This document shows, in pieces, positions 7,710 to 41,175 of a stretch of DNA of 64,000 bases. The notes beneath the pieces were generated by a model, which saw only the letters and a list, made by a program, of their open reading frames with translations, was not told the DNA's origin and ran no database searches. A program made the translations under genes and the position numbers. This DNA comes from an uncultured Bacillota bacterium (GTDB lineage Bacteria; Bacillota; Clostridia; Christensenellales; Borkfalkiaceae): positions 668 to 64,667 of the forward strand of contig CASDTU010000026.1 in assembly GCA_949283775.1 (NCBI GenBank). The letters are read 5' to 3'. The number at the start of each line of letters is the position of its first letter. The first letter of the stretch is position 1.

Positions 7710-7810
7710 TTTTACAAAGCATTGCTTTTTTACTGTAATGTTTCCCGTTTTTAGCTTTTACAAAGCATTGTGCTTTTACTGTAAGGCTTCCCGTTTTTAA
7801 TTTTTACGGA
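7710..7810. repeat. 46-bp imperfect tandem repeat, about 2.2 copies
   Basis: The unit ttttacaaagcattg(t)gctttt(tt)actgtaa(t/g)g(t/c)ttcccgtttttaR starts at 7710, 7756 and 7802. The third, partial copy overlaps the stop codon of the 7797-9332 CDS. Confidence 0.7.
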
Positions 7811-16300: not shown

Positions 16301-17756
16301 CGTCAAACGAAACCTGCTCCGCAGCCGGACAGGCAGCGATTGCAATCTCAATTCCAAACAGCGACAGCTCCGCGCTCAGATCGTTCCAAACGACCGTATT
16401 TTCCGATTCCGTAAAGGAAAAACGCAGCGGAATATCCACCCCCATCAGCGCGAGGTCGCAGGCAATTGTGACCCGATCGCCGTCTTTGACCGGCTCTATG
16501 CCCTCAAATGCGCCTGCCAGGCTATCCATATCCGGCAGTGAACTTTCCCCATCGGAAGGCAGCAGCCCCGTCAGATCGGAAAGGGCGATCTTGCCGATAA
16601 AATCTTTATATTGAACGATGACGGCGCTTCCGGAATAGGCAACGTTCAAATCCCCGAGACGCACCTGCAAAGCGGAAAGCTGCATCTCCTGCATTTTTAA
16701 CAGCACCGCGCCGCAGATCGGCTCGCCCGCCAGCGTCCCGTTTACCTGCAATACGCTTTCGCCGTTTAAAACGGACGCAAACCCTTTACTCAGATAATCG
16801 ATCGCCGTAAGGTCTTCTTGTACGCCGCCCGTCGCCGCGGCGTCGGCGTATTTTGAAAAATATGTATCATACGCCGAAACGTCTATTTTTTCCTCTTCAT
16901 AGTAAAAGTTTATTTCCGAAGAGCCTTCGCACTTCGCATCGACGCCCTTTTTCGACGTATACTTCTCTTGGATCTCTACTTTGTTTACCGTCCAATCCGC
17001 GGCAAAGCGAAAGGTCATTTCCACGGAGGAAAATACGGGCGATTCGTCCAGATTTCCCATCGTGACCATCTGCTTTTTATAATAATACGTCGATTCGTTG
17101 GGTTCCAAAGAAACGGAAAGAACATACTCGCCGCCTTCCTGACTCAATTCGGAGGCAGACAGAAACGTCTCCTCGTTGGTGACATAATCGGAAAACTCCG
17201 TCGCAGGAAGCCCGTATTTTTCCTGCCCCTGCTGCAACGTCAAAATTTCGGAAGGCGCGCCCGTAGACCATTCCACGTCTCCCTTTTCCCAATCCTTTTT
17301 ATCGTTGACTGCCGAACGGACCACCATCGTATCCGCACCGAAAAATTTCTGAATGGCCTTCGAAGGCGCAAACGGATTGCTGCTGATACTCACCGAAGAC
17401 GCCAGCATGATCCCGTCGCTGTAATCCTTCCAGCCGTAAACCGACTGATTCGCCTTGATAAATCCGACCGTCGCTATGACAGTCCCTTCGTTTTCCGTAT
17501 GATACGCATCCCTTCCCGACAATCTGCCGATAAGGAAGCCGACATTGTTCAGCGCGTCATAATTTTCCGGCGTTGTCCCGTCCGTCGGAGGCGCCAGGCA
17601 AATATTGACGCTGTCCGCAGGCTTTACCGAAGCGCGCGGATCTTCTTCGTGCGAAAACGCATACAGCACGATCAGCACGATCGCCGCGATCAAGACGGCC
17701 GCCAGCCCGATTGCTATTACTTTTTTATTTTTCAGTTTTTCAACCGATACTTTCAT
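13353..17756 (-). CDS. Giant signal-anchored protein of unknown function (1467 aa)
   Basis: One uninterrupted ORF with AGGTGA 5 nt before the ATG. The N-terminus MKVSVEKLKNKK + VIAIGLAAVLIAAIVLIVLYAF is a Lys-rich, N-in signal anchor. The remainder is acidic and beta-strand-like, with no motif I recognise. Confidence 0.85.
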   Translation of the reverse strand: MKVSVEKLKNKKVIAIGLAAVLIAAIVLIVLYAFSHEEDPRASVKPADSVNICLAPPTDGTTPENYDALNNVGFLIGRLSGRDAYHTENEGTVIATVGFIKANQSVYGWKDYSDGIMLASSVSISSNPFAPSKAIQKFFGADTMVVRSAVNDKKDWEKGDVEWSTGAPSEILTLQQGQEKYGLPATEFSDYVTNEETFLSASELSQEGGEYVLSVSLEPNESTYYYKKQMVTMGNLDESPVFSSVEMTFRFAADWTVNKVEIQEKYTSKKGVDAKCEGSSEINFYYEEEKIDVSAYDTYFSKYADAAATGGVQEDLTAIDYLSKGFASVLNGESVLQVNGTLAGEPICGAVLLKMQEMQLSALQVRLGDLNVAYSGSAVIVQYKDFIGKIALSDLTGLLPSDGESSLPDMDSLAGAFEGIEPVKDGDRVTIACDLALMGVDIPLRFSFTESENTVVWNDLSAELSLFGIEIAIAACPAAEQVSFDAIDETKAVDLLPYILSLQELLGSESYGWELAAPEIGLTINGKLAADVADPFSVYGEALIQYGTIRLPVAFALKGETVYLEIFQARIKSTLSELQSDLVEIGLTLPELSGTEVELSKIIAFVVGIDFDDVLSGLSLTEKEFALKINGDALLESLKPLLNINGIALGELEAKYNKDEQTFAFSAAGAQMRFGGSEDTVKDITGEGDFLSAGDFLQFVAPVRDLIEKKDIGFKLNGTMQAAGETLTLALSGEIRFFDGLWLYLGGNVNGVRFQVLYDGKEVALEIGGYGLRLKETDLDSLSDTLTKIINETQAKGDNKAALLLFSSEGLDLAGFIESLRLAAAEGGALKISMDLSKLLQSEKTGEVTIELSTDGTAITVRTDKLSVSGAELVGIDVTIFAADGSFVPDFSDAKECGTIFELAMNLYETIAGTQYIGLSMGYSSAEMSVALEGRIQLEKNEQISDTSDAIVPNVILNLDFAAQIDTFAEDGSAQDSHYIHLIVLRDQLYVSYSVLAMDADTALRVTMPIKELFAVGETVLPILSPLLWPQGNPYYYDFVTAILSGGYDTINSSIFGVMDTDAWLNLVLGIFREYASAESDVKAVLPEGAAQFGIGEDGNYCLKIGDLSVAGGGSIRLSLTALKETNAIQPDLTKTYTDISSVGTLLQDVLSAYKYSKDGGYLLSGTLTMSVASIKDIPIDIEIRVGYDEAEELCVYIRTFVKKTTMVFVPIISADTVTEIVIKGGSVYMLRNVLQGDPVSSQDLYYKYTGSGWFGTVNYYDVTSLLTYRASGTSEYRVMTLDSFLGGDTAALMEHLYFILNLSSSAKDIIDYAIKNTGGGSDGQKYDAGQMVGSYGFSENVYSVSLNMGAIVSSDALGALTLNIARTPSADGEAYDLTRLSGDLQIVSAIKINFDISQPSPGSDAMTDEYCDKILDLLAQDGVTVPDKEYSSGTASGVYEWQLVQTVQREKKASGDNWNKGEGSLV

Positions 17757-21567: not shown

Positions 21568-21990
21568 TCAGAGTATTTTTTCCGACAAAAGTTTGATGCC
21601 CTTCTTTTCCAGCAGCGCGACAGCTCGGTCGGTATCCTCCACGCGCATCAGAATTTTTGCCGTGTTGTGATTGGTCAGTACAAAGGAATACAGATATTCG
21701 ATATTCATGTTTGCCTCTTCCATCAACGCGACCACTTCCGCCAAAGCGTTGGGCTTATCGTCCACTTCCACGCCGATCAGCTCGGTGATTCCGACCGTGA
21801 ATCCTTCTTTTTTCAAGATCTCGTACGCCTTTTCGTTGTCGCGCGCGATAAAGCGTACAATACCGAAATCCTTCGTATCCGCGATAGAGAGCGTTACAAA
21901 ATCGATGCCTTCTTTTCCCAATGCGTGGGTGAGTTTATACAGCCTTCCCGGTCTGTTCTCCATAAAGACAGACAATTGCTTTACCAACAT
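21568..21990 (-). CDS. ACT domain-containing protein (tandem ACT)
   Basis: 140 aa. MLVKQLSVFMENRPGRLYKLTHALGKEGI is a typical ACT beta-alpha-beta start, and a second copy is present (VEVDDKPNALAEVVALMEEANMNI). It is the last gene of the paaK/ior cluster. Confidence 0.8.
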   Translation of the reverse strand: MLVKQLSVFMENRPGRLYKLTHALGKEGIDFVTLSIADTKDFGIVRFIARDNEKAYEILKKEGFTVGITELIGVEVDDKPNALAEVVALMEEANMNIEYLYSFVLTNHNTAKILMRVEDTDRAVALLEKKGIKLLSEKIL

Positions 21991-22013
21991 AGTTTCTTCC
22001 TCCTTATCCGAAA

Positions 22014-23330
22014 TTATTCTCTTCTGTCCACTACGCGGACGGCTTTTCCTTCACTGCGCTTGATGGAACCGCTCTCGCATAATTTGATCTTTGCGCTCAC
22101 TCCGATATAGGAATTGACTTCCGTCTCCACCTTCTTCTTGATGGATTCCAGATCGGATACTTTATCCGGCGTCAGATCGCCCGCGAGTTCGATGTCGATC
22201 TCCATGACGTCGAGATTGTTGATGCGATCCACATAGATCATGTAATGCGGCGATACGCCCGCGACGTTCATGATCGCGGCTTCGATCTGTGAAGGGAATA
22301 CGTTGACTCCGCGGATAATGAGCATATCGTCCGAACGGCCCTTGACCTTGCCCATCTTGACCGTCGTTCTGCCGCAGGCACACTTTTCGTTGGATAATAC
22401 GCACAGATCGCGCGTGCGGTAACGGATCAACGGCTGGCCCGTCTTGGTGATTGTCGTGAAGACAAGTTCTCCCTCGCTTCCGAAAGGCAGCGGCTCCAGT
22501 GTTTCAGGGTCGATAATTTCCGGAATAAAATGGTCTTCCTGCACGTGGCTGCCGTGCTTTTGCAGGCATTCCATCGCGACGCCCGGCCCGCAAATTTCCG
22601 AAAGCCCGTAAATATCCAGAGCGTCGATGCCCAGCGTCTTTTCGATCTCGTCGCGCATCTGATACGTCCAAGGCTCCGCGCCGAATGCGCCGCCGACCAG
22701 GGAAAAATCCTTGATGTCCATGCCCGCTTTTTTGATTTCCGTACCCAAAAAGATCGCATACGAAGGCGTACAGCAAAGGTGCGTCGCGCCGAAATCGCGC
22801 ATCAGCGTGAGCTGCCGAATGGTGTTTCCCGCGCTCGCCGGCACAGTGGACGCGCCGATCTTCTGCGCGCCGTAATGCGCGCCCAGCCCGCCCGTAAACA
22901 ATCCGTAACCGTATGCGACATGCACCATCGAATCCTTCGTAACTCCCGCCATCGACAGTCCGCGCGCAACGATTTCCGACCATACGTCTATATCGTTTTT
23001 TGTATAGCCTACAACCGTCAGCTTTCCCGTCGTGCCGCTCGACGCATGCACTTCTACGATCTCGCTCGCCGGAGATGAATAAAACCCGAACGGGTATGCT
23101 TCCCGAAGGTCGTGCTTGACCGTAAAGGGAAGTTTGCAAAGGTCGGACACCGAACGGATATCGGACGGCTTTAACTTCAATTCATCCATTTTTGCGCGAT
23201 ACGGTTTGCAGTTGTTGTACACAAGCTCGACCGTCTTGCGCAAACGTTCGCTCTGCAGATTTTCCATTTCCGAGCGGCTCATGCACTCAAACTCGGGATT
23301 ATAAATATGATCTTTCACTTTTCCGGACAT
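22014..23330 (-). CDS. paaK: Phenylacetate-CoA ligase family adenylate-forming enzyme (copy 1)
   Basis: Start trimmed to the ATG at 23328-23330. Contains HASSGTTGK (P-loop), YGLSE and the RYRTRD...GRSDDMLIIRGVNVFPSQIE motifs typical of PaaK. Confidence 0.88.
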   Translation of the reverse strand: MSGKVKDHIYNPEFECMSRSEMENLQSERLRKTVELVYNNCKPYRAKMDELKLKPSDIRSVSDLCKLPFTVKHDLREAYPFGFYSSPASEIVEVHASSGTTGKLTVVGYTKNDIDVWSEIVARGLSMAGVTKDSMVHVAYGYGLFTGGLGAHYGAQKIGASTVPASAGNTIRQLTLMRDFGATHLCCTPSYAIFLGTEIKKAGMDIKDFSLVGGAFGAEPWTYQMRDEIEKTLGIDALDIYGLSEICGPGVAMECLQKHGSHVQEDHFIPEIIDPETLEPLPFGSEGELVFTTITKTGQPLIRYRTRDLCVLSNEKCACGRTTVKMGKVKGRSDDMLIIRGVNVFPSQIEAAIMNVAGVSPHYMIYVDRINNLDVMEIDIELAGDLTPDKVSDLESIKKKVETEVNSYIGVSAKIKLCESGSIKRSEGKAVRVVDRRE

Positions 23331-23364
23331 ATGTTTTTCCTTCTTTGTCAAATTATACGTCAAA

Positions 23365-23916
23365 TTATACGGCGGCATAGCCTAGCTCAAACGCCGTTTT
23401 GTTCATTTCGATTGTCTTTTGCGGTATGCTCGCAAGGAGCGCCTCTTCAAACTTCGCCCTGTCAAAACCGAGCTTTTTGCACAGCGCACCCAGCATGACT
23501 GAATTCGCCGCCTTTGCGTTGCCCGCTTTCAAAGCGAGCGCGAGCGCGTCCACGCCCGTGCCGCGAAGTTTTTCTTCGATCCCCTGCGGATACTCCGCCG
23601 CGCCCGTTACAACCGGCATCGGCATAATCTCTTGCGTGGAATACAAAATTTCCCCGTCTGCCTTTAAATAGTGCGCATAGCGGAGCGCTTCCAGCTTTTC
23701 AAACGCCAAAATAAAATCGGCACACCCCTCGTCGATGATCGGAGAAGCTATTTTCTGCCCGATACGGACATACGTCATCACGCTGCCGCCGCGCTGCGCC
23801 ATTCCGTGCACCTCGCTCAGCTTTACGTCGAATCCGTTGTCCAATGCGTATTTCCCAAGTACGCGGCTGGCGAGCAACGTGCCCTGTCCGCCTACGCCCA
23901 CGATCAATATATCCAT
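23365..23916 (-). CDS. iorB: Indolepyruvate:ferredoxin oxidoreductase, beta subunit
   Basis: 183 aa. MDILIVGVGGQGTLLASR...SEVHGMAQRGGSV is the pyruvate/ketoisovalerate oxidoreductase gamma-type fold. It directly follows iorA with a 1-nt gap. Confidence 0.88.
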   Translation of the reverse strand: MDILIVGVGGQGTLLASRVLGKYALDNGFDVKLSEVHGMAQRGGSVMTYVRIGQKIASPIIDEGCADFILAFEKLEALRYAHYLKADGEILYSTQEIMPMPVVTGAAEYPQGIEEKLRGTGVDALALALKAGNAKAANSVMLGALCKKLGFDRAKFEEALLASIPQKTIEMNKTAFELGYAAV

Positions 23917-23917
23917 C

Positions 23918-25636
23918 TTACTTTACCTCCCCTTCGATCGCACCGAATTTGCATACGTTCTGGCAAAGGCCGCATTCCGTACAGAGCGATACGTCGATCG
24001 TAATTCCGTCTTTTCCGTTCACGATCGCAGGACAACCGAGCTTCAAGCACGCCTTACATTTCTTGCATTTCTCCGTGATGCGGAATCCGCTGTACAATCT
24101 CTTCGTGAGCAATGCGCAAGGTCTCTTTGCGATGATGACCGATACTTCGTCGCGGCCAAGCTCCTCTTTTACCGCCGCTTCTAAGGCGGAGAGGTTGTTC
24201 GGATCCACCGTGCGGACACGCTGCACGCCGACGGCACGGCATACCTCTTCTAAGTTCAGCTCATAGGTAGGTTCGTTTTTGATCGTCTTGCCGGTCGCGG
24301 GGTGATTCTGATGCCCCGTCATGCCCGTCGTACGATTGTCCAAAATCAAAACCGTGATCTTCGCCTTATTATACACCGCATCGATCAGCCCCGTAATGCC
24401 GCTATGAATAAAGGTGGAGTCGCCGATGACCGCCACGGAATGTTTATGCGCTTCCGGATCTGCTTTATCAAATCCGATCGTCATTCCGATGCTTGCGCCC
24501 ATGCAGACGACCGCATCCATCGAACCCAGCGGCGGCACTGCGCCCAATGTATAACAGCCGATATCGCCCAAAACATTCAGTTTTAATTTAGACAAAACAT
24601 AAAATACGCCGCGGTGCGGACAGCCTGCGCAAAGTACCGGAGGACGCGCCGGAATATTGGCCGGCACCGTTTCCCTCTTTTCACCCAGCACGCAGGAACG
24701 GATCAGATTTGCGGAAAATTCGCCGCACAGCGGAAAAATATTCTTTCCTTCCACGGATATGCCCGCCGCCTTGATCATCGTTTCCAGATGCGGCGCAAGC
24801 TCTTCCGCCACGATGCAGCGCTTTACGCTCTTTGCAAACTTTGCGATCAGATCGAACGGCAGCGGATAGACCATCCCGAGTTTCAATACGCTCGCGTCGG
24901 GCAACGCTTCTTTTACATATTGATAGACGCCGCCCGCACAGATGATGCCGAGATCCTTGCCGCCCTCTTCGATGCGGTTGATCGCAAAGGAATTGGAATC
25001 TTCCGATAATTTTTTCGTTCTCTCCTCCACGACTACGTGCTTTACGCGCGCATTCGCAGGCATCATGACATATTTTGAAATATTCCTTTCGTACGGTTTC
25101 ACTTCCGCTTGCACGCGATCGCAAAGCTCGACCAAACTCTGAGAATGCGCCACTCTTGTCGTTACACGCAAGATGATCGGCGTATCGTATTTTTCGGAAA
25201 GCTCAAACGCGAGTTTTGTAAAATCCTTTGCCTCCGCGCTGTCCGACGGTTCCAAAACCGGCACCTTCGCGCTCACCGCCGTGAGCCGCGTATCCTGTTC
25301 GTTCTGCGAACTGAAAACGGACGGGTCGTCCGCCACAGCGATCACCAAACCTCCGTTTACGCCCGTATACGACGCCGTAAACAGCGGATCGCAGGCCACG
25401 TTCAAACCGACGTGTTTCATCGAAACGATCGCGCGCGCGCCGCGGATCGATGCGCCGATCCCCACTTCCAGCGCCACTTTTTCGTTCGGCGACCATTCGC
25501 TGTAAACGTCGTCATAGCGCGCAAGTTCCTCCGTTATTTCCGTAGACGGCGTTCCGGGATAGGCGGACGCGACCGATACCCCCGCTTCCCACGCGCCGCG
25601 CGCTACGGCAAAATCTCCCAACAGCAATTTCTTCAT
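23918..25636 (-). CDS. iorA: Indolepyruvate:ferredoxin oxidoreductase, alpha subunit (TPP-binding, 2x[4Fe-4S])
   Basis: Start trimmed to the ATG at 25634-25636 (MKKLLLGDFAVARGAWEAG). Contains the GDSTFIHSG TPP motif and C-terminal CKKCKACLKLGCP / CTECGLCQNVC clusters. Confidence 0.9.
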   Translation of the reverse strand: MKKLLLGDFAVARGAWEAGVSVASAYPGTPSTEITEELARYDDVYSEWSPNEKVALEVGIGASIRGARAIVSMKHVGLNVACDPLFTASYTGVNGGLVIAVADDPSVFSSQNEQDTRLTAVSAKVPVLEPSDSAEAKDFTKLAFELSEKYDTPIILRVTTRVAHSQSLVELCDRVQAEVKPYERNISKYVMMPANARVKHVVVEERTKKLSEDSNSFAINRIEEGGKDLGIICAGGVYQYVKEALPDASVLKLGMVYPLPFDLIAKFAKSVKRCIVAEELAPHLETMIKAAGISVEGKNIFPLCGEFSANLIRSCVLGEKRETVPANIPARPPVLCAGCPHRGVFYVLSKLKLNVLGDIGCYTLGAVPPLGSMDAVVCMGASIGMTIGFDKADPEAHKHSVAVIGDSTFIHSGITGLIDAVYNKAKITVLILDNRTTGMTGHQNHPATGKTIKNEPTYELNLEEVCRAVGVQRVRTVDPNNLSALEAAVKEELGRDEVSVIIAKRPCALLTKRLYSGFRITEKCKKCKACLKLGCPAIVNGKDGITIDVSLCTECGLCQNVCKFGAIEGEVK

Positions 25637-25687
25637 TCTGTACCTCCGTATGTTCAACCGTTCCGCCCTTGCAGCGGAACCCGTCCG

Positions 25688-26977
25688 TTATTTTCTAAGA
25701 TCCGTTACCCTCTTAACCTTGCCTTCCGCGCGCTTGATCGAGAACGGTTCCACCAACTTTACTTTGACGTCGATCTGCAACACCACGCGCAGATTGTGTT
25801 TGATCTTCGCGACAAGCTCTTCGAGCTTGGAATAATCGGTCAGAAGATTCGCATCGTCCACTTCCACGCGCACTTCCAGCGTATCCATATAATTGACGCG
25901 GTCGACGATGATCTCGTATGTCTTGCCGAGTTCGTTCATCCCCATCAGGACGCTTTCGATCTGCGAAGGAAATACGTTTACCCCGCGAATGATCAGCATA
26001 TCGTCCGTTCTCCCGACGACCCTGGACATCCTCGCCAAAGTGCGGCCGCATTTGCAGGGCTCATATGTGAGCGAAGTGATGTCCTTCGTGCGATAGCGCA
26101 ATACAGGCATCCCTTCCTTCGTAAGCGTCGTAAGGAGAAGTTCTCCTTGTTCTCCCTCGCCTAACACCTGATTCTTTTCCAGGTTGACGATCTCCGGATA
26201 GAACATGTCCTCGTTGATGTGCATGCCGGCTTTTTCTCTGCACTCGCCCGCAACGCCGGGGCCTCCCACCTCCGTGAGCCCATAATTTTCCGTCGGGAAC
26301 GCGCCGAACATCTTTTGAATGGATTCATGCGTTTCCGCCGTCGACGCCTCCGCGCCCATACAGACGAGCCGAAGTTTCAGATCCTGCAATACGCCCATTT
26401 TCTTCGCCGTTTCGGCAAGATACATCGCATAGCTGGGCGTTGCGATCAGTCCCGTTACGCCGAAATCTTTCATCAGCATGATCTGCCGCTCCGTATTTCC
26501 CGAAGACATCGGAACAACCGTCGCACCCAATTTTTCCACGCCGTAATGCAGTCCGAATCCGCCCGTGAAGAGCCCGTATCCGAACGATACCTGGAAAATA
26601 TCTTCATCCGTCGCCCCAGCCATCGCCAAGACGCGCGCTACGCACGTCGACCAGTTATCCAGGTCCTTTCGCGTATACCCGCCCACGATCGGCTTGCCCG
26701 TCGTACCGCTGGAAGCGTGCAGGCGAATGATCTTTTTCATCGGCACCGCAAACAAACCGAAAGGATAATTATCCCTCAGATCGTCTTTGGTCGTTACGGG
26801 AATCTTTTCGATATCTTTCAGCGTCTTGATATGTTCGGGTTTGAGTCCGATCTCGTCAAAGCGCTTTTTATACATAGGAACGTTTTCATAAGCATACGCC
26901 ACAATATGTTTTAAACGCTCCAACTGCATTTCACGCAATACTTTCCGATCGATCTTTTCTATTTCCGGACTGAACAT
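25688..26977 (-). CDS. paaK: Phenylacetate-CoA ligase family adenylate-forming enzyme (copy 2)
   Basis: 429 aa. Contains HASSGTTGKP, YGLTE and RYRTKD...GRTDDMLIIRGVNVFPSQIE. It is a paralog of the 22014-23330 gene. Confidence 0.88.
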   Translation of the reverse strand: MFSPEIEKIDRKVLREMQLERLKHIVAYAYENVPMYKKRFDEIGLKPEHIKTLKDIEKIPVTTKDDLRDNYPFGLFAVPMKKIIRLHASSGTTGKPIVGGYTRKDLDNWSTCVARVLAMAGATDEDIFQVSFGYGLFTGGFGLHYGVEKLGATVVPMSSGNTERQIMLMKDFGVTGLIATPSYAMYLAETAKKMGVLQDLKLRLVCMGAEASTAETHESIQKMFGAFPTENYGLTEVGGPGVAGECREKAGMHINEDMFYPEIVNLEKNQVLGEGEQGELLLTTLTKEGMPVLRYRTKDITSLTYEPCKCGRTLARMSRVVGRTDDMLIIRGVNVFPSQIESVLMGMNELGKTYEIIVDRVNYMDTLEVRVEVDDANLLTDYSKLEELVAKIKHNLRVVLQIDVKVKLVEPFSIKRAEGKVKRVTDLRK

Positions 26978-27076: not shown

Positions 27077-27107
27077 AAAAAAAACGGTGCGGTTTTCCAC
27101 CGCACCG
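27077..27107 (-). terminator. Intrinsic terminator closing the maf/mreB-like/membrane-paralog transcription unit
   Basis: Stem cggtgcgg/ccgcaccg (27085-27107). On the minus strand it is followed by an 8-nt U-run (A-run at 27077-27084). Confidence 0.65.
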
Positions 27108-27123
27108 AAAAACTATATGCTTT

Positions 27124-28641
27124 TTATTCTTTGGACGAATTTTCGTCTTTTGCTCCGGCAAAACGGGGAATATTCGTTTCTTTCCCTGCTCCGTCCGAAC
27201 CGCTTACGGCTGTTGCTTCCGCCGGCGCAGTTGCTTCCGCCGGCGCAACCTTTTTATTTTTGCTGTCGAACAACACCGCCGCCAAAACAAACATCAGGCC
27301 GATCAGCATCAACACGAATATGCTCAAAACTTTTTCGTACGGATACAGCAATTTTAAAAACTCAAATTCCGAGCCGAGATACAGTACCAAATAGAACACG
27401 AGCGCCAAGCCGGCTGCAACAGATATATTTACGACGGACGCCGTCCCGACGCCGGTACCTCTCCATATTCTGCGCAAAGCCGTGAAGAACACCACCGCAA
27501 CCATTGCAAATAAGCCCAGATACAGGGCGGCGGGAACGGCAAAATTCAATATCGTCAGCGTCATGCCTTCCCCTTCTTCCAGCGCAAAACCGTCAAAGCA
27601 ATGCAAGCCGAATACCGAACCGATCTTGTCGACCAATCCGCCGAACTCCACCAACTTTCCGTAGCAAATGCAGCAGCAGACAAAGGATAAAATTGCGACC
27701 ACGCTGTCCGAAGTCAGCGCCAAAACATCCTTCGCTCCGCTTACCTTTCTGCCGGTAAGCACGGAGCCGATCAGGTACAGTCCGCCCAACACGGCAGTGA
27801 TCACAAAACAGAAAATTCCGACGCAGTTGATCCCCGTCGCCGTAAGCTGGCAGAGAGCAAACATCGCAAAAAATCCGATCAGATACATCAGGAAAAATTT
27901 CCCCGCTTTGATCTCTTTCCCGAAAATGAAACCGATCGAAAAATAAATCAAAAAAATCAAAGATACGACCTGCAAATAGAGATATGCCGCCGTTTCGCCT
28001 GTCAGCAGAATCGAACGAAACATCGTATCGTCGGCATACTTGACCATGGCTTCCGTAGTCGTTTCGCTTTGGGCGTATTGAATTTCCGCCTCTAACCGAT
28101 CGATCTTAATTATGTTGATATTGTCAAAACTTGCCACAATCTCATCTGCGATCTTTTCATACAGATCCAACAGCTCTTCCGCAGCTTTGGAACTGCCCGC
28201 CTCGACCTGGGTGGTAAGATCCGCAATTTCCATGCTGTATTTTTGAACCAATTCGCCCATCGTCGATTCCATCTTATCAACCAGCTTGCTGTATTCTTCC
28301 TGCGCCGCTTCCAAATCGTCCGTAGAAATAATAAGCGCCATGATCGCGTTGAAATAATTCTGTTCAAAAGGCTTTGCCAAAATTATTTCCGTAAAATCAT
28401 AGGAACTTCCTTCCATATCCACTTTCGTCTGAACCTGTTCCATCGGCATAAAAGTCATGCGCATAAAAAATCCGCTGACAAACACGATAAAACACAGCGC
28501 ACAGACGATCGCACGCAAGACGTATTTATTCAGTACGTTTTTAAAGTTTTCAAACGTACCGACTTTCTCCTTTTTGCCTTGCGGCAAATCCTTTGCCTTC
28601 TCACTACATCCTGCCGTAGCATTCACTGCCGCTTCTGCCAT
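27124..28641 (-). CDS. Polytopic membrane protein of unknown family, paralog A (about 8 TM, large helical loop after TM1)
   Basis: Start trimmed to the ATG at 28639-28641 after GGGAGGGAG. It shares long strings with the upstream gene: LRAIVCALCFIVFVSGFFM, KAGKFFLMYLIGFFAMFALCQLTATGIN and VEFGGLVDKIGSVFGLHCF. The C-terminal tail holds a perfect APAEAT x2 repeat. Confidence 0.8.
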   Translation of the reverse strand: MAEAAVNATAGCSEKAKDLPQGKKEKVGTFENFKNVLNKYVLRAIVCALCFIVFVSGFFMRMTFMPMEQVQTKVDMEGSSYDFTEIILAKPFEQNYFNAIMALIISTDDLEAAQEEYSKLVDKMESTMGELVQKYSMEIADLTTQVEAGSSKAAEELLDLYEKIADEIVASFDNINIIKIDRLEAEIQYAQSETTTEAMVKYADDTMFRSILLTGETAAYLYLQVVSLIFLIYFSIGFIFGKEIKAGKFFLMYLIGFFAMFALCQLTATGINCVGIFCFVITAVLGGLYLIGSVLTGRKVSGAKDVLALTSDSVVAILSFVCCCICYGKLVEFGGLVDKIGSVFGLHCFDGFALEEGEGMTLTILNFAVPAALYLGLFAMVAVVFFTALRRIWRGTGVGTASVVNISVAAGLALVFYLVLYLGSEFEFLKLLYPYEKVLSIFVLMLIGLMFVLAAVLFDSKNKKVAPAEATAPAEATAVSGSDGAGKETNIPRFAGAKDENSSKE

Positions 28642-28797
28642 AACTCCCTCCCTAAAAAATGTATTCTGAAACGGTTTAAACCGTATCCATTCCCTTTTGG
28701 TCCATCGAACGCCATTCAATGCCTCTTGAAATATTTTCTTATTCGTTCATCAAGTCTTTTTATTTCTTTGTCTTACAGCCGCAATGCCGTAAAACGA

Positions 28798-30288
28798 TCA
28801 GAGCTCCTCGCCTATCTGATCGGATTCGGTCTGTAAACATTTCTCCGACTCGGTTTCCCTCTTTACGGACGCATTTTTCTGCGCCTTTGCGCTGATAAAC
28901 GACGCTATCACAAAAATGAAAGCCATAAAGTTCATCACGATCAAAGCGACAGAGCCGCCGAGCGGATACAAAACTTCTAAAAATCCTACTTGCGAACCGA
29001 TAAACAGAATTAAATAAAAAACCGCAGAAAATGCCGCAGAAAGACTCGTAAAGACGATCGCGTGCACAGCCACCCCTTTCCCGGTTTGCATACGGCGAAG
29101 CGCCATGAAAAAAACGAACGCCGAAAAGGTGAGCGCCGCCAAATACAAAATACCCGGCATGAGCAGATTCATCAGCGTCATTTTCAAACCTTCGCCCTCT
29201 TCAAAAGCGTATTCTTCAAAACAGTGCAATCCGAACACGCCGCCGATCTTGTCGACTTTGCCGCCGAATTCCACCAGGCTTCCGTAGCACAGACAGCACG
29301 CCACAAAAACAAAGACCGCACTTAAACTTTCCGCCACGAGCGCAAAAACACCGCTTGCCTGCACCTTGCGGTTTGCCAGCATATCGCCGATCAGATACAG
29401 TCCGCCCAATACGACGGTGATCACAAAACAGAACATTCCGACGCCGTTGATCCACGTCGCCGTGAGCTGGCAAAAAGCAAACATCGCAAAGAATCCGATC
29501 AGATACATCAGGAAAAATTTCCCAGCCTTCACGCGCTTTTTGCCGATAAAGCCCAATCCGAAAAGGATCAAAAACACCATCGACGTCACTTGCAGATACA
29601 GATACGCCGCCGTTTCCCCGATCAGAAGTATGTTTCGGATCAACATGTCGTTCGCAACTTTTTCAATCTGATAGTCCGGCCCTTCGGCAATCGAATACGA
29701 ATACTCGGCGATCATGCGATCATATTTGATCACGTTGATTTCCGACAGCCGAACGCAGTATTCATCGAGAACTTTTTTCAGAAAATCGATGAGTTTATTT
29801 TCAGCGCCGGCCTCTCCAGCCTCTATCGCCGCTCGAAGCTCCATGAGTTCGTCACGATAGTCTTCAAAAATATTAGTGTTTATGGATGTTATCTTTTCCT
29901 CAAATTCCTGACATCCTTCCAAATTTTTTTCCGGATCCGTACCGACCGTCGCGGCAAAAATCGCATTGAAATAGTTCTGCTCAACTTTCAATACATCTCC
30001 CTCCAAGAGATCGTTCAATCCTTGGATACCAACAATATTCAACTCTATGTCGGAATTGATATCGTCCAACGACGTATATTGCATTTGCATAAAAAATCCA
30101 CTGACAAACACGATAAAGCACAGCGCACACACAATAGAGCGCAGCACAAACGCATTCATCACCGTGCGAAAACGCTCAAATCCTTTTCCCTTTGCGTTGC
30201 CGTTTTCCGCACCGTCGCACTCTCGATACGTACCCGCATCCGTTTTGTCCGCCGAAACGCTCATCGTTTCTCCTTCCACTTTTTCCAT
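28798..30288 (-). CDS. Polytopic membrane protein of unknown family, paralog B
   Basis: 496-aa ORF. An alternative start, the ATG at 30262-30264, follows a stronger AAGGAG site. It has the same architecture and shared strings as paralog A: LRSIVCALCFIVFVSGFFM, KAGKFFLMYLIGFFAMFAFCQLTATWIN and VEFGGKVDKIGGVFGLHCF. Confidence 0.8.
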   Translation of the reverse strand: MEKVEGETMSVSADKTDAGTYRECDGAENGNAKGKGFERFRTVMNAFVLRSIVCALCFIVFVSGFFMQMQYTSLDDINSDIELNIVGIQGLNDLLEGDVLKVEQNYFNAIFAATVGTDPEKNLEGCQEFEEKITSINTNIFEDYRDELMELRAAIEAGEAGAENKLIDFLKKVLDEYCVRLSEINVIKYDRMIAEYSYSIAEGPDYQIEKVANDMLIRNILLIGETAAYLYLQVTSMVFLILFGLGFIGKKRVKAGKFFLMYLIGFFAMFAFCQLTATWINGVGMFCFVITVVLGGLYLIGDMLANRKVQASGVFALVAESLSAVFVFVACCLCYGSLVEFGGKVDKIGGVFGLHCFEEYAFEEGEGLKMTLMNLLMPGILYLAALTFSAFVFFMALRRMQTGKGVAVHAIVFTSLSAAFSAVFYLILFIGSQVGFLEVLYPLGGSVALIVMNFMAFIFVIASFISAKAQKNASVKRETESEKCLQTESDQIGEEL

Positions 30289-30416
30289 ATCCTACCTCTG
30301 ATTTTATTTGAAGCGGATCGCTCCGCATTCATTCCCTCTTAATTCTCTCTTAAAAAACTCTGCTTCCTTTGGCTTTTGCCGACTTAACTTGTCTCTGTTT
30401 TTATTGAATCCGACGT

Positions 30417-31415
30417 TTAGTAATCGATCCGCACCGTCTCCAAAAGATCGGTATTTCCGATCGCGCTACCGCCGCCGAACACGACCGCCATCTGCGGCTC
30501 TTCGGCCACGCTGACATCCATTTGCAATTTCCGCGACATATAATCGTCCAAACCCAAAAGTTTAGCCGTGCCGCCCGACAGAAAAATCCCGCTGTGCCAG
30601 ATCGAAGCCGAAACCTCCGCCGGAAGTTTCGCAAGCAGCATTTCCGTATATTCTATGACTTTATCCGCAAACACTTTCACACATTCGTAAATATCTTTGG
30701 AAGAAACGGAAACCGACCGAGGCCTGCCCGTGGTGATATCCCTTCCGTTTACGATCATGCTCTCATCGTCGCCCGCATAGAGACTTCCGACCGTCATCTT
30801 TAATTTTTCGCTCGTTTGCAAACCGATCTTTAAATTAAACGATTCGGCCACTCGGTCGATGATATGGCTGTCAATATTTCCGCCGCCGATATTCAGTCCG
30901 ATCCCCGCAATGATCCCGTCCAGCGAAAATGCCGCAATGTTCGTGCTCCCGCCGCCGATATCCACGATAAAAAGCGGATTCGTTTCGTTCAGCGCCAAGT
31001 TCTGACCGAAAGCGGACAAAAACGGAACTTCAATAAAATTTGTAACCGCTATGCCGCACGCCTCCGACAGGCGGTAATATTTGTCCAGAAGATCGTTTTC
31101 GGCGCCGCACGGCACGCTGAAAACTACTTCCGTCTTTTTTGCACGCGCGCGGCTTATGCCGATTTTCTGCAAAAAATAGGACAGCATCGTCGCCGCCATC
31201 GGCTCATTGACGATGTCCGCTTCAAAAACGGGAAACACGATCGTCGTATATTCCGCCGTTTTGCCGATCAGCCGCTTTGCCTCCTCTCCGATCGCCTTCA
31301 CCGTCGAAGAACCGGTGGCCACCGCAACGCAGCTCGCCTCCGCCAAAACGATCCCGCTCCCGATTTTAAATATTTTCGTTACCGAAGATCCCAAATCTAT
31401 CGCTAATTTAATCAT
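30417..31415 (-). CDS. Divergent MreB/Mbl-family actin-like ATPase
   Basis: 332 aa and colinear with MreB. AIDLGSSVTKIF is phosphate 1, FIVDIGGGSTNIA is phosphate 2, and FLSGGTAKLLGL is the adenosine motif. Many positions that are otherwise invariant in MreB are substituted. The start ATG overlaps the maf stop (ATGA at 31412-31415). Confidence 0.8.
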   Translation of the reverse strand: MIKLAIDLGSSVTKIFKIGSGIVLAEASCVAVATGSSTVKAIGEEAKRLIGKTAEYTTIVFPVFEADIVNEPMAATMLSYFLQKIGISRARAKKTEVVFSVPCGAENDLLDKYYRLSEACGIAVTNFIEVPFLSAFGQNLALNETNPLFIVDIGGGSTNIAAFSLDGIIAGIGLNIGGGNIDSHIIDRVAESFNLKIGLQTSEKLKMTVGSLYAGDDESMIVNGRDITTGRPRSVSVSSKDIYECVKVFADKVIEYTEMLLAKLPAEVSASIWHSGIFLSGGTAKLLGLDDYMSRKLQMDVSVAEEPQMAVVFGGGSAIGNTDLLETVRIDY

Positions 31416-31972
31416 TTTATCACACCGATCTTTTCTAATTCGTCTTTGATTTTTTCTTGCGGCAGTCCTACAATGTTTGTGTAGCTGCCTTCGTACCGCT
31501 CCACCAGCCGGGCATCGTCCTGTATGCCGTAGCTCCCCGCCTTGTCCAAAGGTTTTCCGCTTCGGACGTATTCATCTATAAACTCTACCGAAAGACTGCG
31601 GAAAAATACCTTCGTACAGCAAACGCCTTCTGTCCTACCTTCCCGTCGACATATACAATATCCCGTATAGACCCTATGTTCTTTTCCGGACAGCTTTAAA
31701 AGCGTATCCTTCGCGTCCTGCGCATTGGAAGGTTTGCCTAAATATTCCCCTTCGAACCAGACGATCGTATCCGCACCGAGAACAACGGCATCCGGATTTT
31801 TTTCAAAAACATTCTCCGCCTTTGCCCGCGCCAATGCAGCCACATACTCTTCCGGCGGCAAACGCCTGTCCGGCTTTTCCTCTTCGCTCGAAGGAATTAC
31901 CTCAAAGACCGGCAGCAGCTTTGACAAAATCTCTCTGCGGCGCGGCGAAGCGCTCGCCAATAAAAAACGCAT
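31412..31972 (-). CDS. maf: Maf-like nucleoside triphosphate pyrophosphatase / septum formation protein
   Basis: Start trimmed to the ATG at 31970-31972. MRFLLASASPRRREIL...GADTIV...GKP...AGSYGIQ are Maf signatures. Confidence 0.9.
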   Translation of the reverse strand: MRFLLASASPRRREILSKLLPVFEVIPSSEEEKPDRRLPPEEYVAALARAKAENVFEKNPDAVVLGADTIVWFEGEYLGKPSNAQDAKDTLLKLSGKEHRVYTGYCICRREGRTEGVCCTKVFFRSLSVEFIDEYVRSGKPLDKAGSYGIQDDARLVERYEGSYTNIVGLPQEKIKDELEKIGVIK

Positions 31973-32024
31973 ATCCTCTCCATAAAAAGATAGCCGCAAT
32001 TTTTCTTTGCGGCTACTTCTGTCA

Positions 32025-33539
32025 TTATAAGATTTCCAGATTCTTCCGGAAAGACTTACGGAATTCCGCGTTCGCCGTCATCGCATCTCGAATTTCCAAA
32101 GACGCATCTCCGTCCACTTCCGTCTTCATAATGACGGAATCGCCGAGCACGTCGCAATTGATTCCCTTGATCACACCGGAACTGCTTCGGTCCAAACTTT
32201 CCGCTATCCGCAGCATTACGCCCAATTTGCGCACCGCTTCCAGATCCTCTTCCAAAACGATATCTTTGTATTTCATCCAATCTGCCGCAGAAATATCCTC
32301 TTTCTTATGGCAGCCTGCCACAAACGCGGCCAACACAATCTCCCGATGCGTGATCCCGTACAGCGTGGCGTTTAAAATCATATAACAACTGTGCTTTTGA
32401 TGATTGTAAAATTTAATGCGGTTTCCGCAATCGTGCAGCGTCGCCGCCACTTTCAGGATCTTTAAATATTGCCGAGGGAATTTATGCAATACGCGCAGCT
32501 GTTTGAAAAGCTGTACCGATAAGTTTACTACCTGCTCCACGTGCTTCTCATCACATTCATAATACTGCACAAGGCTCATCAGACTGTATCCCAAAATATC
32601 CGAAATCGGCTTTTCCATCGTTATGGGCATCGCCTGATTGAACATGATCCCTTCCCGCAATCCCGATCCGCCGATCGTAAAACGGTCAAAATGCATAAAA
32701 GACGTAAACGATTTCACGACCGCAAGCGCTGCGGGCAAGATGTCCGCACGCCCCGACGAAAGTCCTTTGATCTTCTTTTTCTTGTCGAGGTCGAGCACTT
32801 TGATCATGTCATAGATCGATTCAAAATCTTCCACCGGCAAATTGTAGTTGTGCACCGTGTCCAACGGATATTTGCGCACCATTTTGCTGATCTTGAAAAT
32901 ATTTCGGAACGATCCGCCCACGCCGATCATCTGCGTGTCCGGATCGACCTGCGACAACCATTCGATTCCCGTAAGCTGCTCTGTGAAAAACTCTTCGACT
33001 TTTGCCGTCTGCTCTTCCGGCGACAAACCGTCGTTTTTGAACAGATCGGTCAGCGTCACCGCGCCGAACGGCAGCGTCACATAATTGAGCATGTTCCGCC
33101 GGTTGTAATAGACGATCTTCGTGCTGCCGCCGCCGATCTCCAAGATCAGCCCCTTCGGAATATCCATCGAATTGATCACGCCGCGATACACGAGCGTAGC
33201 CTCTTCCTCTTCGCTCAGAACTTTCACCTTTATTCCGCACGTTGCCTGTATTTCATCCAAAAAGCTGCGCTGATTTTTTGCACGGCGAACTGCCGCTGTC
33301 GCAACGGCTATGATCCTGTCCACTTTGCTTGCATCGGCAAGTTTTTTAAACATTTTTAACGTCTTGATCGTCTCCGCGACCCGCTGCGGTTTCAAAAAAC
33401 CGTCTCTCTCCATGTCCTGCCCGAGCCGCACACTCTCTTTCAGCTCATCCACAACCATAAAATGCCCGTCTCCGAATAATTCGACAATCACAAGCCGCGC
33501 CGAATTCGAGCCAAGATCAATAATCCCTAACTTTTCCAC
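32025..33539 (-). CDS. ppx: Ppx/GppA-family exopolyphosphatase with C-terminal HD domain
   Basis: GTG start at 33537-33539 after AGAGGTG. GIIDLGSNSARLVI and ILEIGGGSTKIV are ASKHA phosphate motifs. The C-terminal half has LHDCG (HD). Confidence 0.88.
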   Translation of the reverse strand: MEKLGIIDLGSNSARLVIVELFGDGHFMVVDELKESVRLGQDMERDGFLKPQRVAETIKTLKMFKKLADASKVDRIIAVATAAVRRAKNQRSFLDEIQATCGIKVKVLSEEEEATLVYRGVINSMDIPKGLILEIGGGSTKIVYYNRRNMLNYVTLPFGAVTLTDLFKNDGLSPEEQTAKVEEFFTEQLTGIEWLSQVDPDTQMIGVGGSFRNIFKISKMVRKYPLDTVHNYNLPVEDFESIYDMIKVLDLDKKKKIKGLSSGRADILPAALAVVKSFTSFMHFDRFTIGGSGLREGIMFNQAMPITMEKPISDILGYSLMSLVQYYECDEKHVEQVVNLSVQLFKQLRVLHKFPRQYLKILKVAATLHDCGNRIKFYNHQKHSCYMILNATLYGITHREIVLAAFVAGCHKKEDISAADWMKYKDIVLEEDLEAVRKLGVMLRIAESLDRSSSGVIKGINCDVLGDSVIMKTEVDGDASLEIRDAMTANAEFRKSFRKNLEIL

Positions 33540-40106: not shown

Positions 40107-40535
40107 TCACCGCGCCGCCCCTGTCTTTTTCGCGCCCCCTGTCCGTCCTGCACCCGACCGCGCTTTATCGATCGCCGCGCGGATCGCCGAAACAAACTGA
40201 AAGACGGACAAAACACATAAAAACAGACCGAAGCCCATCCGCAAAGTCCCTGCCGATACTCCTTGCACAAAGATCGCTCCCAATACCGACAAGACGGTCG
40301 CCGGTACAATCGTCCATATGATATCTTTTGTATCCAACAATCCGTTTTTTGCGTGAACTTTCAGAGAAATGCCGGACATCGGCACAAAGGAAAACAAATT
40401 TGCCGACTGCGCCAAATGCTGCGGAACGCCGCACAGCACCGTAAGCGCCGGGATCAGGATCGTCCCGCCGCCCATTCCCATGCCGCCCAATAATCCCCCG
40501 AAAAATCCGACCGCCAAATAAATGATAAACCGCAA
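40107..40535 (-). CDS. Half-size (4-TM) TauE/SafE (TSUP) family permease
   Basis: TTG start at 40533-40535, 8 nt after AAGGAG. FFGGLLGGMGMGGGTILIPALT is the Gly-rich TSUP repeat motif. A basic roughly 25-aa C-terminal tail follows. Confidence 0.75.
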   Translation of the reverse strand: MRFIIYLAVGFFGGLLGGMGMGGGTILIPALTVLCGVPQHLAQSANLFSFVPMSGISLKVHAKNGLLDTKDIIWTIVPATVLSVLGAIFVQGVSAGTLRMGFGLFLCVLSVFQFVSAIRAAIDKARSGAGRTGGAKKTGAAR

Positions 40536-40812: not shown

Positions 40813-41175
40813 TTAAAAAATCATTTTGATTCCGGCCGCAAACATGACGATCGCAAAGAGGGCCACGGCGGCGGACGGCGAGATCCGGTTTAAAATCTTC
40901 GCTCCGGCAGCGCCGCCGAGCAAAACCCCGATGCTGACCGATAAAAAAAGCTCCGTATCAAACTGTCCGCTGAAGATATAGATCATCGCGCTCGCAAGGC
41001 ACACGGGAAGAATGATCAGAATCGCCGTAGCGTGCGCGACGAGCGGCGGCTTTTTACAGACTCCCGTCAGAAGCGGCACGACGATCATGCCCCCGCCTCC
41101 GCCGAAAATTCCGTTCACGATCCCCACCAAACAGCCGCAGGCGCATAAAATGGCTTTGTTTTTTATCCCGTTCAT
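40813..41175 (-). CDS. Half-size (4-TM) TauE/SafE (TSUP) family permease
   Basis: 120 aa. GIVNGIFGGGGGMIVVPLLT is the TSUP repeat motif, with 4 predicted TM helices. The RBS is weak. Confidence 0.7.
   Translation of the reverse strand: MNGIKNKAILCACGCLVGIVNGIFGGGGGMIVVPLLTGVCKKPPLVAHATAILIILPVCLASAMIYIFSGQFDTELFLSVSIGVLLGGAAGAKILNRISPSAAVALFAIVMFAAGIKMIF

Follow-up and report, generated by a model that had tools for sequence, protein, structure and literature searches.

A divergent maf-coupled MreB-like gene and two orphan eight-helix membrane protein genes in a Borkfalkia-type bacterium: probably neighbours rather than obligate partners

In Firmicutes the classical gene order is maf–(radC)–mreBCD, and rod growth normally uses a hydrolysing MreB plus MreC, a bitopic protein with a β-rich periplasmic domain, and MreD, which is about 170 aa long and has 5-6 transmembrane (TM) helices. 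The 64-kb stretch of DNA analysed here (the window) carries a maf gene followed by a divergent mreB-like gene and then by two paralogous genes for proteins with 8 TM helices, which raises the question of whether the latter serve the MreB-like protein as dedicated partners in the membrane or are only its neighbours. A sequence-only reading had proposed a specialised actin-like module with the duplicated polytopic protein as its membrane partner; of this proposal, the atypical maf-coupled MreB without adjacent mreC/mreD held up in our analysis, and the dedicated partnership of the 8-TM proteins did not. The features described for maf, the MreB-like gene and the two TM genes were all recovered, all on the minus strand, and the locus is laid out as follows.

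32025 to 33539, minus strand: ppx, Ppx/GppA-family phosphatase (Pfam Ppx-GppA, 179.9 bits, and Ppx-GppA_III), which opens the conserved ppx–maf–mreB-like triad
31990 to 32016, minus strand: terminator-like hairpin in the ppx/maf gap (consensus scan and sequence; 10-bp stem, then CTTTTTAT)
31412 to 31972, minus strand: maf, Maf-family nucleotide pyrophosphatase (Pfam Maf and TIGR00172), its stop overlapping the MreB-like start (ATGA)
30417 to 31415, minus strand: divergent MreB-family actin-like gene, 332 aa (Pfam and NCBIfam profiles, alignment to Geobacillus MreB)
28798 to 30264, minus strand: orphan 8-TM paralog A, 488 aa from the ATG at 30264 (496 aa from an alternative ATG at 30288)
27124 to 28641, minus strand: orphan 8-TM paralog B, 505 aa, tandem duplicate of A, with AGGGAGGG before its ATG
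27085 to 27107, minus strand: strong intrinsic terminator, which ends the maf–mreB-like–TM-A–TM-B gene string

The Maf protein gave a full-length match (PF02545, 194.4 bits against a cut-off of 27; TIGR00172, 162.3 against 117.15); its open reading frame spans 31412-31999, and the likely start is the ATG at 31972, with GGAGAGG upstream of it. The overlap between the maf stop and the MreB-like start could be read directly at 31415-31412 ('...ATAAAATGATTAAA'), and the MreB-like gene would thus be translationally coupled to maf. For paralog A, the ATG at 30264 is preceded by GGAAGGAG, a better ribosome-binding site than that of the ATG at 30288. Scanning of the two intergenic gaps (mreB-like/TM-A and TM-A/TM-B) revealed no promoter-like and no convincing terminator-like site. 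The sole strong intrinsic terminator in the gene string is the one at 27107-27085 (9-bp stem with 7 G-C pairs, then T8), in agreement with the earlier statement that none occurs until 27077-27107. Since the gaps are free of such signals and a strong terminator comes only after paralog B, co-transcription of the TM genes with maf–mreB-like is probable. The hairpin between ppx and maf may attenuate read-through out of ppx.

The divergent actin-like protein turned out to be a real but atypical member of the MreB family. It matched Pfam PF06723 (MreB_Mbl) with 241.6 bits (cut-off 27) over residues 3-324, which lie on profile positions 3-324 of 327, but stayed under all three NCBIfam cut-offs, the curated scores by which NCBI names MreB/MreBH (NF010539, 239.4 vs 293; TIGR00904, 213.9 vs 365.75; NF010540, 215.3 vs 515). 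Its best relative in the PDB was Geobacillus MreB (181.6 bits, 35% identity), which bears out the match of about one third to canonical MreB estimated by eye. The nucleotide-binding motifs previously reported (LAIDLGSS, VDIGGGST, SGGTAKLL) are present in the translation, and AIDLGSS (phosphate 1), VDIGGGST (phosphate 2) and LSGGTAKL (adenosine) align with the corresponding Geobacillus MreB loops. Judged by sequence, the maf-linked MreB-like proteins are a coherent MreB subfamily that has kept its nucleotide-binding loops.

The hydrolysis motif E…T-X-[D/E] was then read at the positions of CcMreB E140, T167 and E169 in the window protein and in 120 representatives of its clade. In the window protein all three residues are replaced (V130, S157, N159). 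Across the clade, Glu was found at the E140 position in 0/120 representatives, which have V, T, A, I or S instead; Thr was kept at the T167 position in 9/120, with replacements including S, V, N, C and K; and an acidic residue stood at the E169 position in 2/120, N and S being the replacements. Of all MreBs, 95.8% retain this motif, and Spiroplasma MreB3 releases Pi slowly on account of having lost it; MreB3 coexists with paralogs bearing the motif (PMC9597168). As in MreB3, all three motif positions are substituted here, but by V/S/N and not by D/K/S, and the comparison showed no subfamily tie between the two at the sequence level (PDB 7E1C scored 137 bits, below canonical MreBs). The hosts differ too, a wall-less swimmer for MreB3 and a rod-shaped Clostridia bacterium with a wall for the protein described here. 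From the loss of the motif we infer that the MreB-like protein would bind ATP and hydrolyse it slowly or not at all.

The membrane anchors are affected as well. In Geobacillus MreB a hydrophobic N-terminus and the α2-β7 loop have both been shown to act as membrane anchors (PMC10718530). The window protein has only 'MIK' ahead of β1, and its α2-β7 loop reads ISRARAKK where Geobacillus MreB has GLFA; in the clade the N-terminus is equally short and the consensus loop is basic or shortened. The predicted protein is therefore without both anchors mapped in Geobacillus MreB, and because its own anchors are missing some membrane adaptor is plausible; it would reach the membrane, if at all, via the basic loop or through other proteins. 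Compared with Firmicutes MreB/Mbl/MreBH, as represented by Geobacillus stearothermophilus MreB (PDB 7ZPT), the window protein is thus alike in its colinear full length, its nucleotide loops and the position of its gene directly after maf, and it differs in being 35% identical, in the loss of the hydrolysis motif, the hydrophobic N-terminus and the GLFA loop, and in having no mreC/mreD after its gene.

Paralogs A and B are 48% identical across 463 aa (E 2e-142), and the strings proposed to be common to them (LR[AS]IVCALCFIVFVSGFFM, KAGKFFLMYLIGFFAMFA.CQLTAT and VEFGG.VDKIG.VFGLHCF) occur in both. A hydropathy scan and an AlphaFold model agreed on 8 TM helices with an N-in/C-in topology and on a helical, acidic outside loop that links TM1 to TM2 and is about 160 aa long (33 D/E vs 13 K/R), so that the N-in head, helical outer loop (about 180 aa as first given) and roughly 8 TM helices described before were confirmed. 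A word-indexed protein search with TM-A returned a 99% identical copy as its sole match, and the family was for this reason found only by an exhaustive profile search, which gave 21 representatives among 1.84 billion. Among the genome hits of the family, the named ones are all Ca. Borkfalkia species and the remaining ones Clostridia MAGs. Most orthologues begin with a cytoplasmic CxxC…CxxC zinc ribbon (PF13240, 35 bits, cut-off 25) ahead of a TM helix, as do zinc-ribbon-headed Firmicutes membrane proteins (Zn_Ribbon_1/DZR), but the rest of the protein fits no described family. This head is absent from both window paralogs and from 3 further family representatives; by comparison with their orthologues, the window paralogs have lost it.

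No family could be assigned to these proteins, as the sequence-only reading had already stated for A and B. The two window proteins had no match in Pfam or NCBIfam, and the family had none in Pfam (12 members, E ≤ 10), PADLOC, PHROGs or PDB sequences apart from the zinc ribbon, matched in 5/12 members. In Foldseek comparisons with PDB folds, neither the whole AlphaFold model nor the TM core gave a match at E ≤ 0.001; since these models, built from 12 sequences, are of moderate confidence (pLDDT 71-72), a remote fold relationship may have been missed. TTYH2, the best whole-model match, was rejected as a fold relative (E 0.19, TM-score 0.15, model pLDDT 72). For the 7-TM core, TARP γ2/claudin-like four-helix bundles and VKOR were regarded as generic helix-bundle matches and not as homology (E 0.1-1, TMq about 0.4, pLDDT 71). 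A VKOR-like redox role was considered because the TM proteins are Cys-rich (11-12 Cys), and was dropped because they have no conserved CxxC and their near-invariant Cys positions are all single ones.

The comparison with the known partners of MreB was equally negative. The 8-TM proteins gave no hit to MreC (PF04085) or MreD (PF04093) in 12 members at E ≤ 10, and none in NCBIfam; they resemble MreC/MreD in lying downstream of mreB and differ in their length (about 490-500 aa), their 8 TM helices and their all-helical outside domain. RodZ has a cytoplasmic HTH head, a single TM helix and a periplasmic C-terminal domain. It offers a functional model for an MreB tether, and the 8-TM proteins are like it by analogy only (an N-in head, an extracytoplasmic domain and, sometimes, a place near cell-shape genes); unlike RodZ, they are N-in/C-in, carry a zinc ribbon or no head domain, match no HTH, and share with it neither Pfam or sequence similarity nor conserved linkage.

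Turning to the related loci, the ppx–maf–mreB-like order was found in every relative examined, with MreB-like identities of 55-100%; Ppx is 75-94% identical and syntenic in all of them, and the 4-7 bp overlap between maf and mreB-like is retained in the gene-called relatives. In these gene-called loci no mreC or mreD Pfam family was present among the gene calls downstream of the MreB-like gene, nor was either found among the roughly 50 open reading frames of the window. Likewise, a second MreB, MreC, MreD, RodA or Min did not appear in the 64-kb window or the related loci, which cover a small fraction of the genome. The papers on Borkfalkia that were consulted make no mention of MreB, MreC or MreD, and literature searched for MreB together with Christensenellales yielded nothing relevant.

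The TM gene behaves differently from this unit. When its contexts were compared across the numbered loci of related genomes (L001-L035 series), it followed the MreB-like gene in L009-15, L023-29 and L034-35 and was missing from that slot in L001-4 and L006-8. Close relatives, with MreB-like proteins 77-82% identical, have TraX or nothing in the slot, and more distant ones a kinase pair, a SUKH-like protein or an HTH gene. The 279-aa protein encoded in it in L007 was considered as a divergent MreC and set aside, as it showed only a weak SUKH/SMI1 match. Elsewhere the TM gene lies after argB (L018, L030-32), after rpsI (L016/17) or behind GT2, Fic and mobile-element genes (L021/22); one orthologue adjoins Fic, collagen-like and conjugative-element-type genes. 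Its linkage to the AMP-ligase/UvrBA block lying downstream is no less consistent than that to the MreB-like gene, and its position relative to this block is constant across deep divergence, which indicates vertical inheritance. Because the argB, rpsI and GT2 loci keep the TM gene by AMP-ligase/UvrBA, rearrangement breakpoints must lie on both its sides. In at least 4 deeply divergent TM sequence groups the gene comes after mreB-like in the same orientation with a gap of 33-112 bp, an operon-like arrangement. The MreB clade is far wider than the TM family. A conserved co-occurrence and adjacency of the two was not observed, the slot being without the TM gene or the gene elsewhere in many loci.

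The evolutionary rates point in the same direction. Among species with MreB-like proteins 77-85% and Ppx 91-94% identical, the TM proteins share 29-47% identity, and between the window and L005, which belongs to the same species, the TM genes carry 7 non-synonymous and 4 synonymous changes against 0 and 1 in mreB-like; the rate of change in the TM family is several times that of the MreB-like protein. Within the family, A is closest to B and B to A (46-48% identical), and the duplication is thus lineage-specific.

Taken together, we consider it fairly probable that an old ppx–maf–mreB-like unit stands beside a young, fast-evolving TM accessory gene and that the two are neighbours and not obligate partners. 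Two units of different age would happen to lie side by side, with the TM gene, tandemly duplicated in the window species, in the variable slot that separates the MreB-like gene from the following conserved block. Its product would be a lineage-specific envelope or surface protein of a sensor or scaffold type, whose acidic helical bundle (about 160 aa) may be exposed at the cell surface and subject to selection that is relaxed or diversifying. Counting against this explanation are the operon-like placement behind mreB-like in at least 4 deeply divergent TM groups, the missing anchors of the MreB-like protein, which make some adaptor plausible, and the fact that all named TM-family genomes are Ca. 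Borkfalkia, the genus also carrying the MreB-like clade. It is unlikely, in our view, that the 8-TM proteins are membrane partners of an MreB-like filament, analogous to RodZ or MreC/MreD, with the N-terminal head tethering the anchor-less MreB and the outer bundle linking it to the wall. The shared strand without signals between the genes, the gaps of 33-112 bp in L009-L015, the recurrence of the adjacency in many Borkfalkia-type loci, the missing hydrophobic N-terminus and α2-β7 anchor, the N-in head with its zinc ribbon in most orthologues and the lack of adjacent mreC/mreD in any locus examined would all fit such a role; against it, however, the slot is without the TM gene in relatives whose MreB-like proteins, 77-82% identical, agree with that of the window in loop, N-terminus and motif, the argB, rpsI and GT2/mobile-element contexts hold it apart from mreB-like and beside AMP-ligase/UvrBA with breakpoints on both sides, the head is missing in both window paralogs and 3 other representatives, the several-fold rate gap is unlike that of tightly interacting partners, and the adjacency amounts to roughly one evolutionary event within one genus. 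The proposed replacement of MreC/MreD by the 8-TM duplicates fails on the slots that lack them, the other placements and the differing rates; inherited synteny is the best reading of the adjacency. The TM genes, being a fast-evolving local duplicate that is absent or elsewhere in related genomes, are probably not dedicated partners of the MreB-like protein, and a facultative interaction may be compatible with the comparative data. It seems very unlikely that the TM genes came as cargo with a mobile or defence island inserted behind mreB-like, encoding for instance an abortive-infection or exclusion protein of the membrane: the patchy presence in a variable slot, the fast evolution with local duplication and the orthologue near Fic, collagen-like and conjugative-element-type genes are offset by the lack of a PADLOC or informative PHROG match, of integrase, repeats or tRNA at the slot in the mapped loci, by a GC content at 27-30 kb (0.46-0.50) inside the range of the window, and by the vertically inherited position relative to AMP-ligase/UvrBA.

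A separate question, limited to the MreB part and leaving the preferred reading of neighbouring units intact, is whether the MreB-like protein is an accessory paralog with a regulatory or structural side role, the rod being made by a canonical motif-bearing MreB with mreC/mreD, rodA and pbp2 encoded elsewhere. We regard the chances of this as evenly balanced. The cells of Ca. Borkfalkia ceftriaxensis are rod-shaped and measure 1.5 x 0.8 µm (PMC6839795). The hydrolysis motif is missing clade-wide, Firmicutes rods normally use a hydrolysing MreB, and the precedent of Spiroplasma MreB3 involves coexisting motif-bearing paralogs; on the other hand, the gene occupies the classical maf–mreB position, its product is 77-85% conserved within the genus, as expected of an important protein, and the small part of the genome covered by the window and the loci holds no second MreB, MreC, MreD, RodA or Min. 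We give little credence to the bolder idea that the MreB-like protein is the sole actin-like cytoskeleton of rod-shaped, MreC/MreD-less Borkfalkia-type bacteria, a static ATP-bound scaffold recruited by polytopic proteins such as the zinc-ribbon/8-TM family; if true, their rods would be shaped by a system that departs in construction from canonical MreBCD–RodZ.

The 8-TM family is a clean case of a genus-restricted, fast-evolving surface membrane protein without a known fold relative. The data do not support calling it an MreC/MreD substitute, and adjacency within one genus with conserved synteny counts as about one observation, not many. For the MreB-like protein, to our knowledge motif loss in MreB has so far been studied mainly in the wall-less Spiroplasma. 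Here, a walled, rod-shaped gut Firmicute lineage keeps an MreB that is predicted to be unable to hydrolyse ATP by the standard mechanism and to have no intrinsic anchor, and this, if confirmed biochemically, would bear on the long-standing question of what hydrolysis and direct membrane binding do for MreB.

The gene string outlined by the sequence-only reading, in which maf runs into a divergent MreB-family gene followed by two paralogous 8-TM genes (A and B), was confirmed in its coordinates, ATGA overlap, A/B paralogy, quoted strings, topology and terminator, and is made up of the following features:

32025-33539, minus strand, Ppx/GppA phosphatase gene (Pfam 179.9 bits)
31990-32016, minus strand, terminator-like hairpin between the ppx stop and the maf ribosome-binding site, a 10-bp stem then CTTTTTAT (scan and sequence)
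31412-31972, minus strand, maf, start ATG after GGAGAGG (Pfam Maf 194.4 bits; TIGR00172 above cut-off)
30417-31415, minus strand, MreB-family gene (332 aa), here called mreB-like
28798-30264, minus strand, 8-TM gene A (best ribosome-binding site at 30264; upstream ATG at 30288 possible)
27124-28641, minus strand, 8-TM gene B
27085-27107, minus strand, strong intrinsic terminator

The ATGA at 31415-31412 is the maf stop overlapping the mreB-like start. The hairpin upstream of maf may attenuate read-through from ppx to maf–mreB-like; scanning of the mreB-like/A and A/B gaps gave no promoter-like and no convincing terminator-like site, and weak hairpins within coding sequence were close to the shuffled-sequence level (11 found vs 8.8 expected). 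The terminator is followed immediately by an aromatic-acid fermentation cluster (21568-26977, minus strand), which also includes an ACT-domain protein:

25688-26977 and 22014-23378, minus strand, PaaK-type ligases
23918-25657 and 23365-23916, minus strand, indolepyruvate:ferredoxin oxidoreductase IorA/IorB-like genes

Since other Borkfalkia loci hold a convergent AMP-ligase and UvrBA after the TM gene, a rearrangement breakpoint is placed just past gene B of the window.

The order ppx–maf–mreB-like, with the maf/mreB-like overlap, recurs in 7/7 gene-called orthologue loci (55-82% MreB-like identity), and the nearer of the seven additionally carry Rnf and a HAD hydrolase upstream. The gene after mreB-like is TraX in loci L001 and L002, a histidine kinase with a LytTR regulator in L006, a 279-aa protein with a weak SUKH match in L007 and a small HTH gene in L008; in L003 and L004 no gene separates mreB-like from the convergent AMP-ligase. 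Neither mreC nor mreD was found in these seven loci (L001-4, L006-8), and among the ~50 ORFs of the 64-kb window there was no match to MreC, MreD, RodA, PBP or Min.

L007 and L008 also share features with a separate part of the window. A TauE/SafE exporter is encoded there as two ORFs (40107-40535 and 40813-41175, minus strand) corresponding to the N- and C-terminal halves of the Pfam model; as the two-gene form occurs in L007 and L008 too, it is not an assembly frameshift artefact. The split pair adjoins a 1266-aa ORF (41359-45159, plus strand) without Pfam match and with a lipoprotein-like N-terminus (…LFTAC), homologues of which (32-34%) stand beside TauE in both loci. Each of two further ORFs of 1467 and 766 aa (13353-17756 and 52180-54480, minus strand) has a signal/TM-like N-terminus, and neither matches Pfam at E ≤ 0.1. 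In a 511-aa ORF (7797-9332, minus strand) only the final 70 residues gave a match, to ribosomal protein L15 (Ribosomal_L27A); the start of this ORF was probably called too far upstream, or the ORF conceals another gene.

The MreB-like protein is colinear with the entire Pfam MreB/Mbl profile (241.6 bits) and falls below the NCBIfam MreB cut-offs (239 vs 293, 214 vs 366 and 215 vs 515); it is a true member of the Pfam family, yet an outlier. Its closest solved relative is Geobacillus MreB (181.6 bits, 35% identity), a Ca. Borkfalkia excrementavium protein sits in a 77% identical cluster, and relatives at 55-57% carry the names Ca. Gallimonas sp. and Clostridia bacterium. The protein also matches phrog_22570, a phage family of unknown function (E 3.7e-36, 682-position profile), from which it follows that MreB-like domains are present in some phage proteins.

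The nucleotide-binding loops are retained. The hydrolysis motif E…T-X-[D/E] (CcMreB E140, T167, E169) is changed at each of its three positions, to V130, S157 and N159. The Glu of 'IEEP' is taken as equivalent to E. coli E143. In the 120 cluster representatives nearest to the MreB-like protein (52-100% identity), the first motif position is Glu in 0/120, the second is Thr in nine and the third is acidic in two, a clade-wide loss of the motif. By comparison, it occurs in 95.8% of non-Spiroplasma MreBs, and Spiroplasma MreB3 releases Pi slowly because it lacks the motif (Takahashi et al., PMC9597168). Geobacillus MreB is anchored to lipid by two elements, FGIGTK at its hydrophobic N-terminus and GLFA in the α2-β7 loop (PMC10718530). 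The MreB-like protein lacks both: its N-terminus is MIK-β1 and its α2-β7 loop is basic (ISRARAKK), a pattern of short N-terminus and basic loop common to the whole clade. The claim of a divergent, maf-coupled MreB without adjacent mreCD is thus upheld, and is strengthened in that the hydrolysis motif and both membrane anchors are lost throughout the clade. As far as sequence can tell, this variant of MreB would bind ATP and hydrolyse it poorly, and its approach to the membrane would require electrostatics or other proteins.

A and B share 48% identity (463 aa), including the strings quoted in the sequence-only reading. The AlphaFold model agrees with hydropathy and the positive-inside rule on 8 TM helices, N-in/C-in. 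TM1 and TM2 are separated by an outside domain that is acidic and entirely helical (residues ~58-221; 33 D/E vs 13 K/R), and the outside loop between TM5 and TM6 is conserved (EFGGxVDKIGxVFGLH). With a word-indexed search the sole match was a 99% copy in L005, a short contig from the window species; exhaustive profile searching across 1.84 billion representatives gave 21 family proteins, of which 11 reached E ≤ 1e-30 and ~10 were full length, and the TM-core motifs are conserved in the family alignment. Searching this alignment against the genome collection returned 5 loci, from Candidatus Borkfalkia excrementigallinarum, B. stercoripullorum, B. excrementipullorum and two Clostridia MAGs. A zinc ribbon (CxxC…CxxC; PF13240, 35 bits vs cut-off 25) stands at the N-terminus of 5/12 members and is missing from both window paralogs; beyond it, the family had no match in Pfam, NCBIfam, PADLOC, PHROGs or PDB sequences. 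Moderately confident AlphaFold models (pLDDT 72.1 and pTM 0.67 for the whole protein; pLDDT 71.3 for the TM core) gave nothing at E ≤ 0.001 in Foldseek, the top matches (TTYH2, TARP γ2/claudin-like, VKOR, sensor four-helix bundles; E > 0.001) being generic helical bundles.

Mapping of the window proteins and neighbouring markers onto the 35 comparison loci resolved five arrangements:

a (L009-15, L023-29, L034-35), Rnf–HAD–Ppx–Maf–MreB-like–TM–(convergent AMP-ligase)–x–x–UvrB–UvrA
b (L018, L030-32), argC–argJ–argB–TM–(AMP-ligase)–UvrB
c (L021/22), mobile-element-type genes–Fic–collagen-like–(divergent GT2)–TM–(AMP-ligase)–UvrB–UvrA
d (L016/17), rplM–rpsI–TM–PHP–PFK
e (window), MreB-like–TM-A–TM-B–terminator–PaaK–IorAB, without AMP-ligase/UvrBA

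In L001-4 the TM slot is vacant or differently occupied, and their MreB-like proteins are as near to that of the window (77-82%) as those of TM-bearing species. The five arrangements and the slot without TM in L001-4 imply that the TM gene was ancestrally fixed between two conserved blocks, with rearrangement cuts on both sides and several losses. Before the TM gene, L021 (1-7410) carries PcfK, DUF4121 and DUF4313 (conjugative-element-type), Fic, a collagen-repeat protein and a divergent GT2/TPR glycosyltransferase, which looks like a mobile-element insertion or rearrangement beside the TM slot.

The sequence-only reading had proposed that the duplicated 8-TM proteins are the membrane partners of the MreB-like protein in place of MreC/MreD. 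Arrangement a leaves 33-112 bp between mreB-like and TM, so the two are likely co-transcribed there; in arrangement c a divergent intergenic region of 590 bp precedes the TM gene, which is therefore able to stand alone, and the gene stays beside AMP-ligase/UvrBA at least as often as beside mreB-like. Between arrangement-a species, identity is 29-47% for TM, 77-85% for MreB-like, 91-94% for Ppx and 76-85% for RnfB. The window and L005 (99.6% nucleotide identity) differ by 5 non-synonymous and 3 synonymous substitutions in A, 2 and 1 in B (partial) and 0 and 1 in mreB-like, counts that are small and point in the same direction as the faster TM divergence. A and B are closer to one another (46-48%) than either is to any other member (≤36-37%), hence a tandem duplication specific to the window lineage. 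This rate pattern fits a surface-exposed TM protein under relaxed or diversifying selection, and fits poorly with stoichiometric partnership to a well-conserved cytoskeletal protein. Phyletic pattern, context and rate thus lend the partnership no support and the headline claim of a module is weakened; a facultative interaction could still occur. With modest confidence, we regard the 8-TM family as a lineage-specific envelope or surface protein, co-expressed in the window species via operon position.

Ca. Borkfalkia ceftriaxensis was described as rod-shaped (1.5 x 0.8 µm) and predicted to form spores (PMC6839795), and loss of the hydrolysis motif in the MreB of a walled rod is moderately surprising. 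The locus places an uncharacterised orphan membrane family beside this MreB subfamily.
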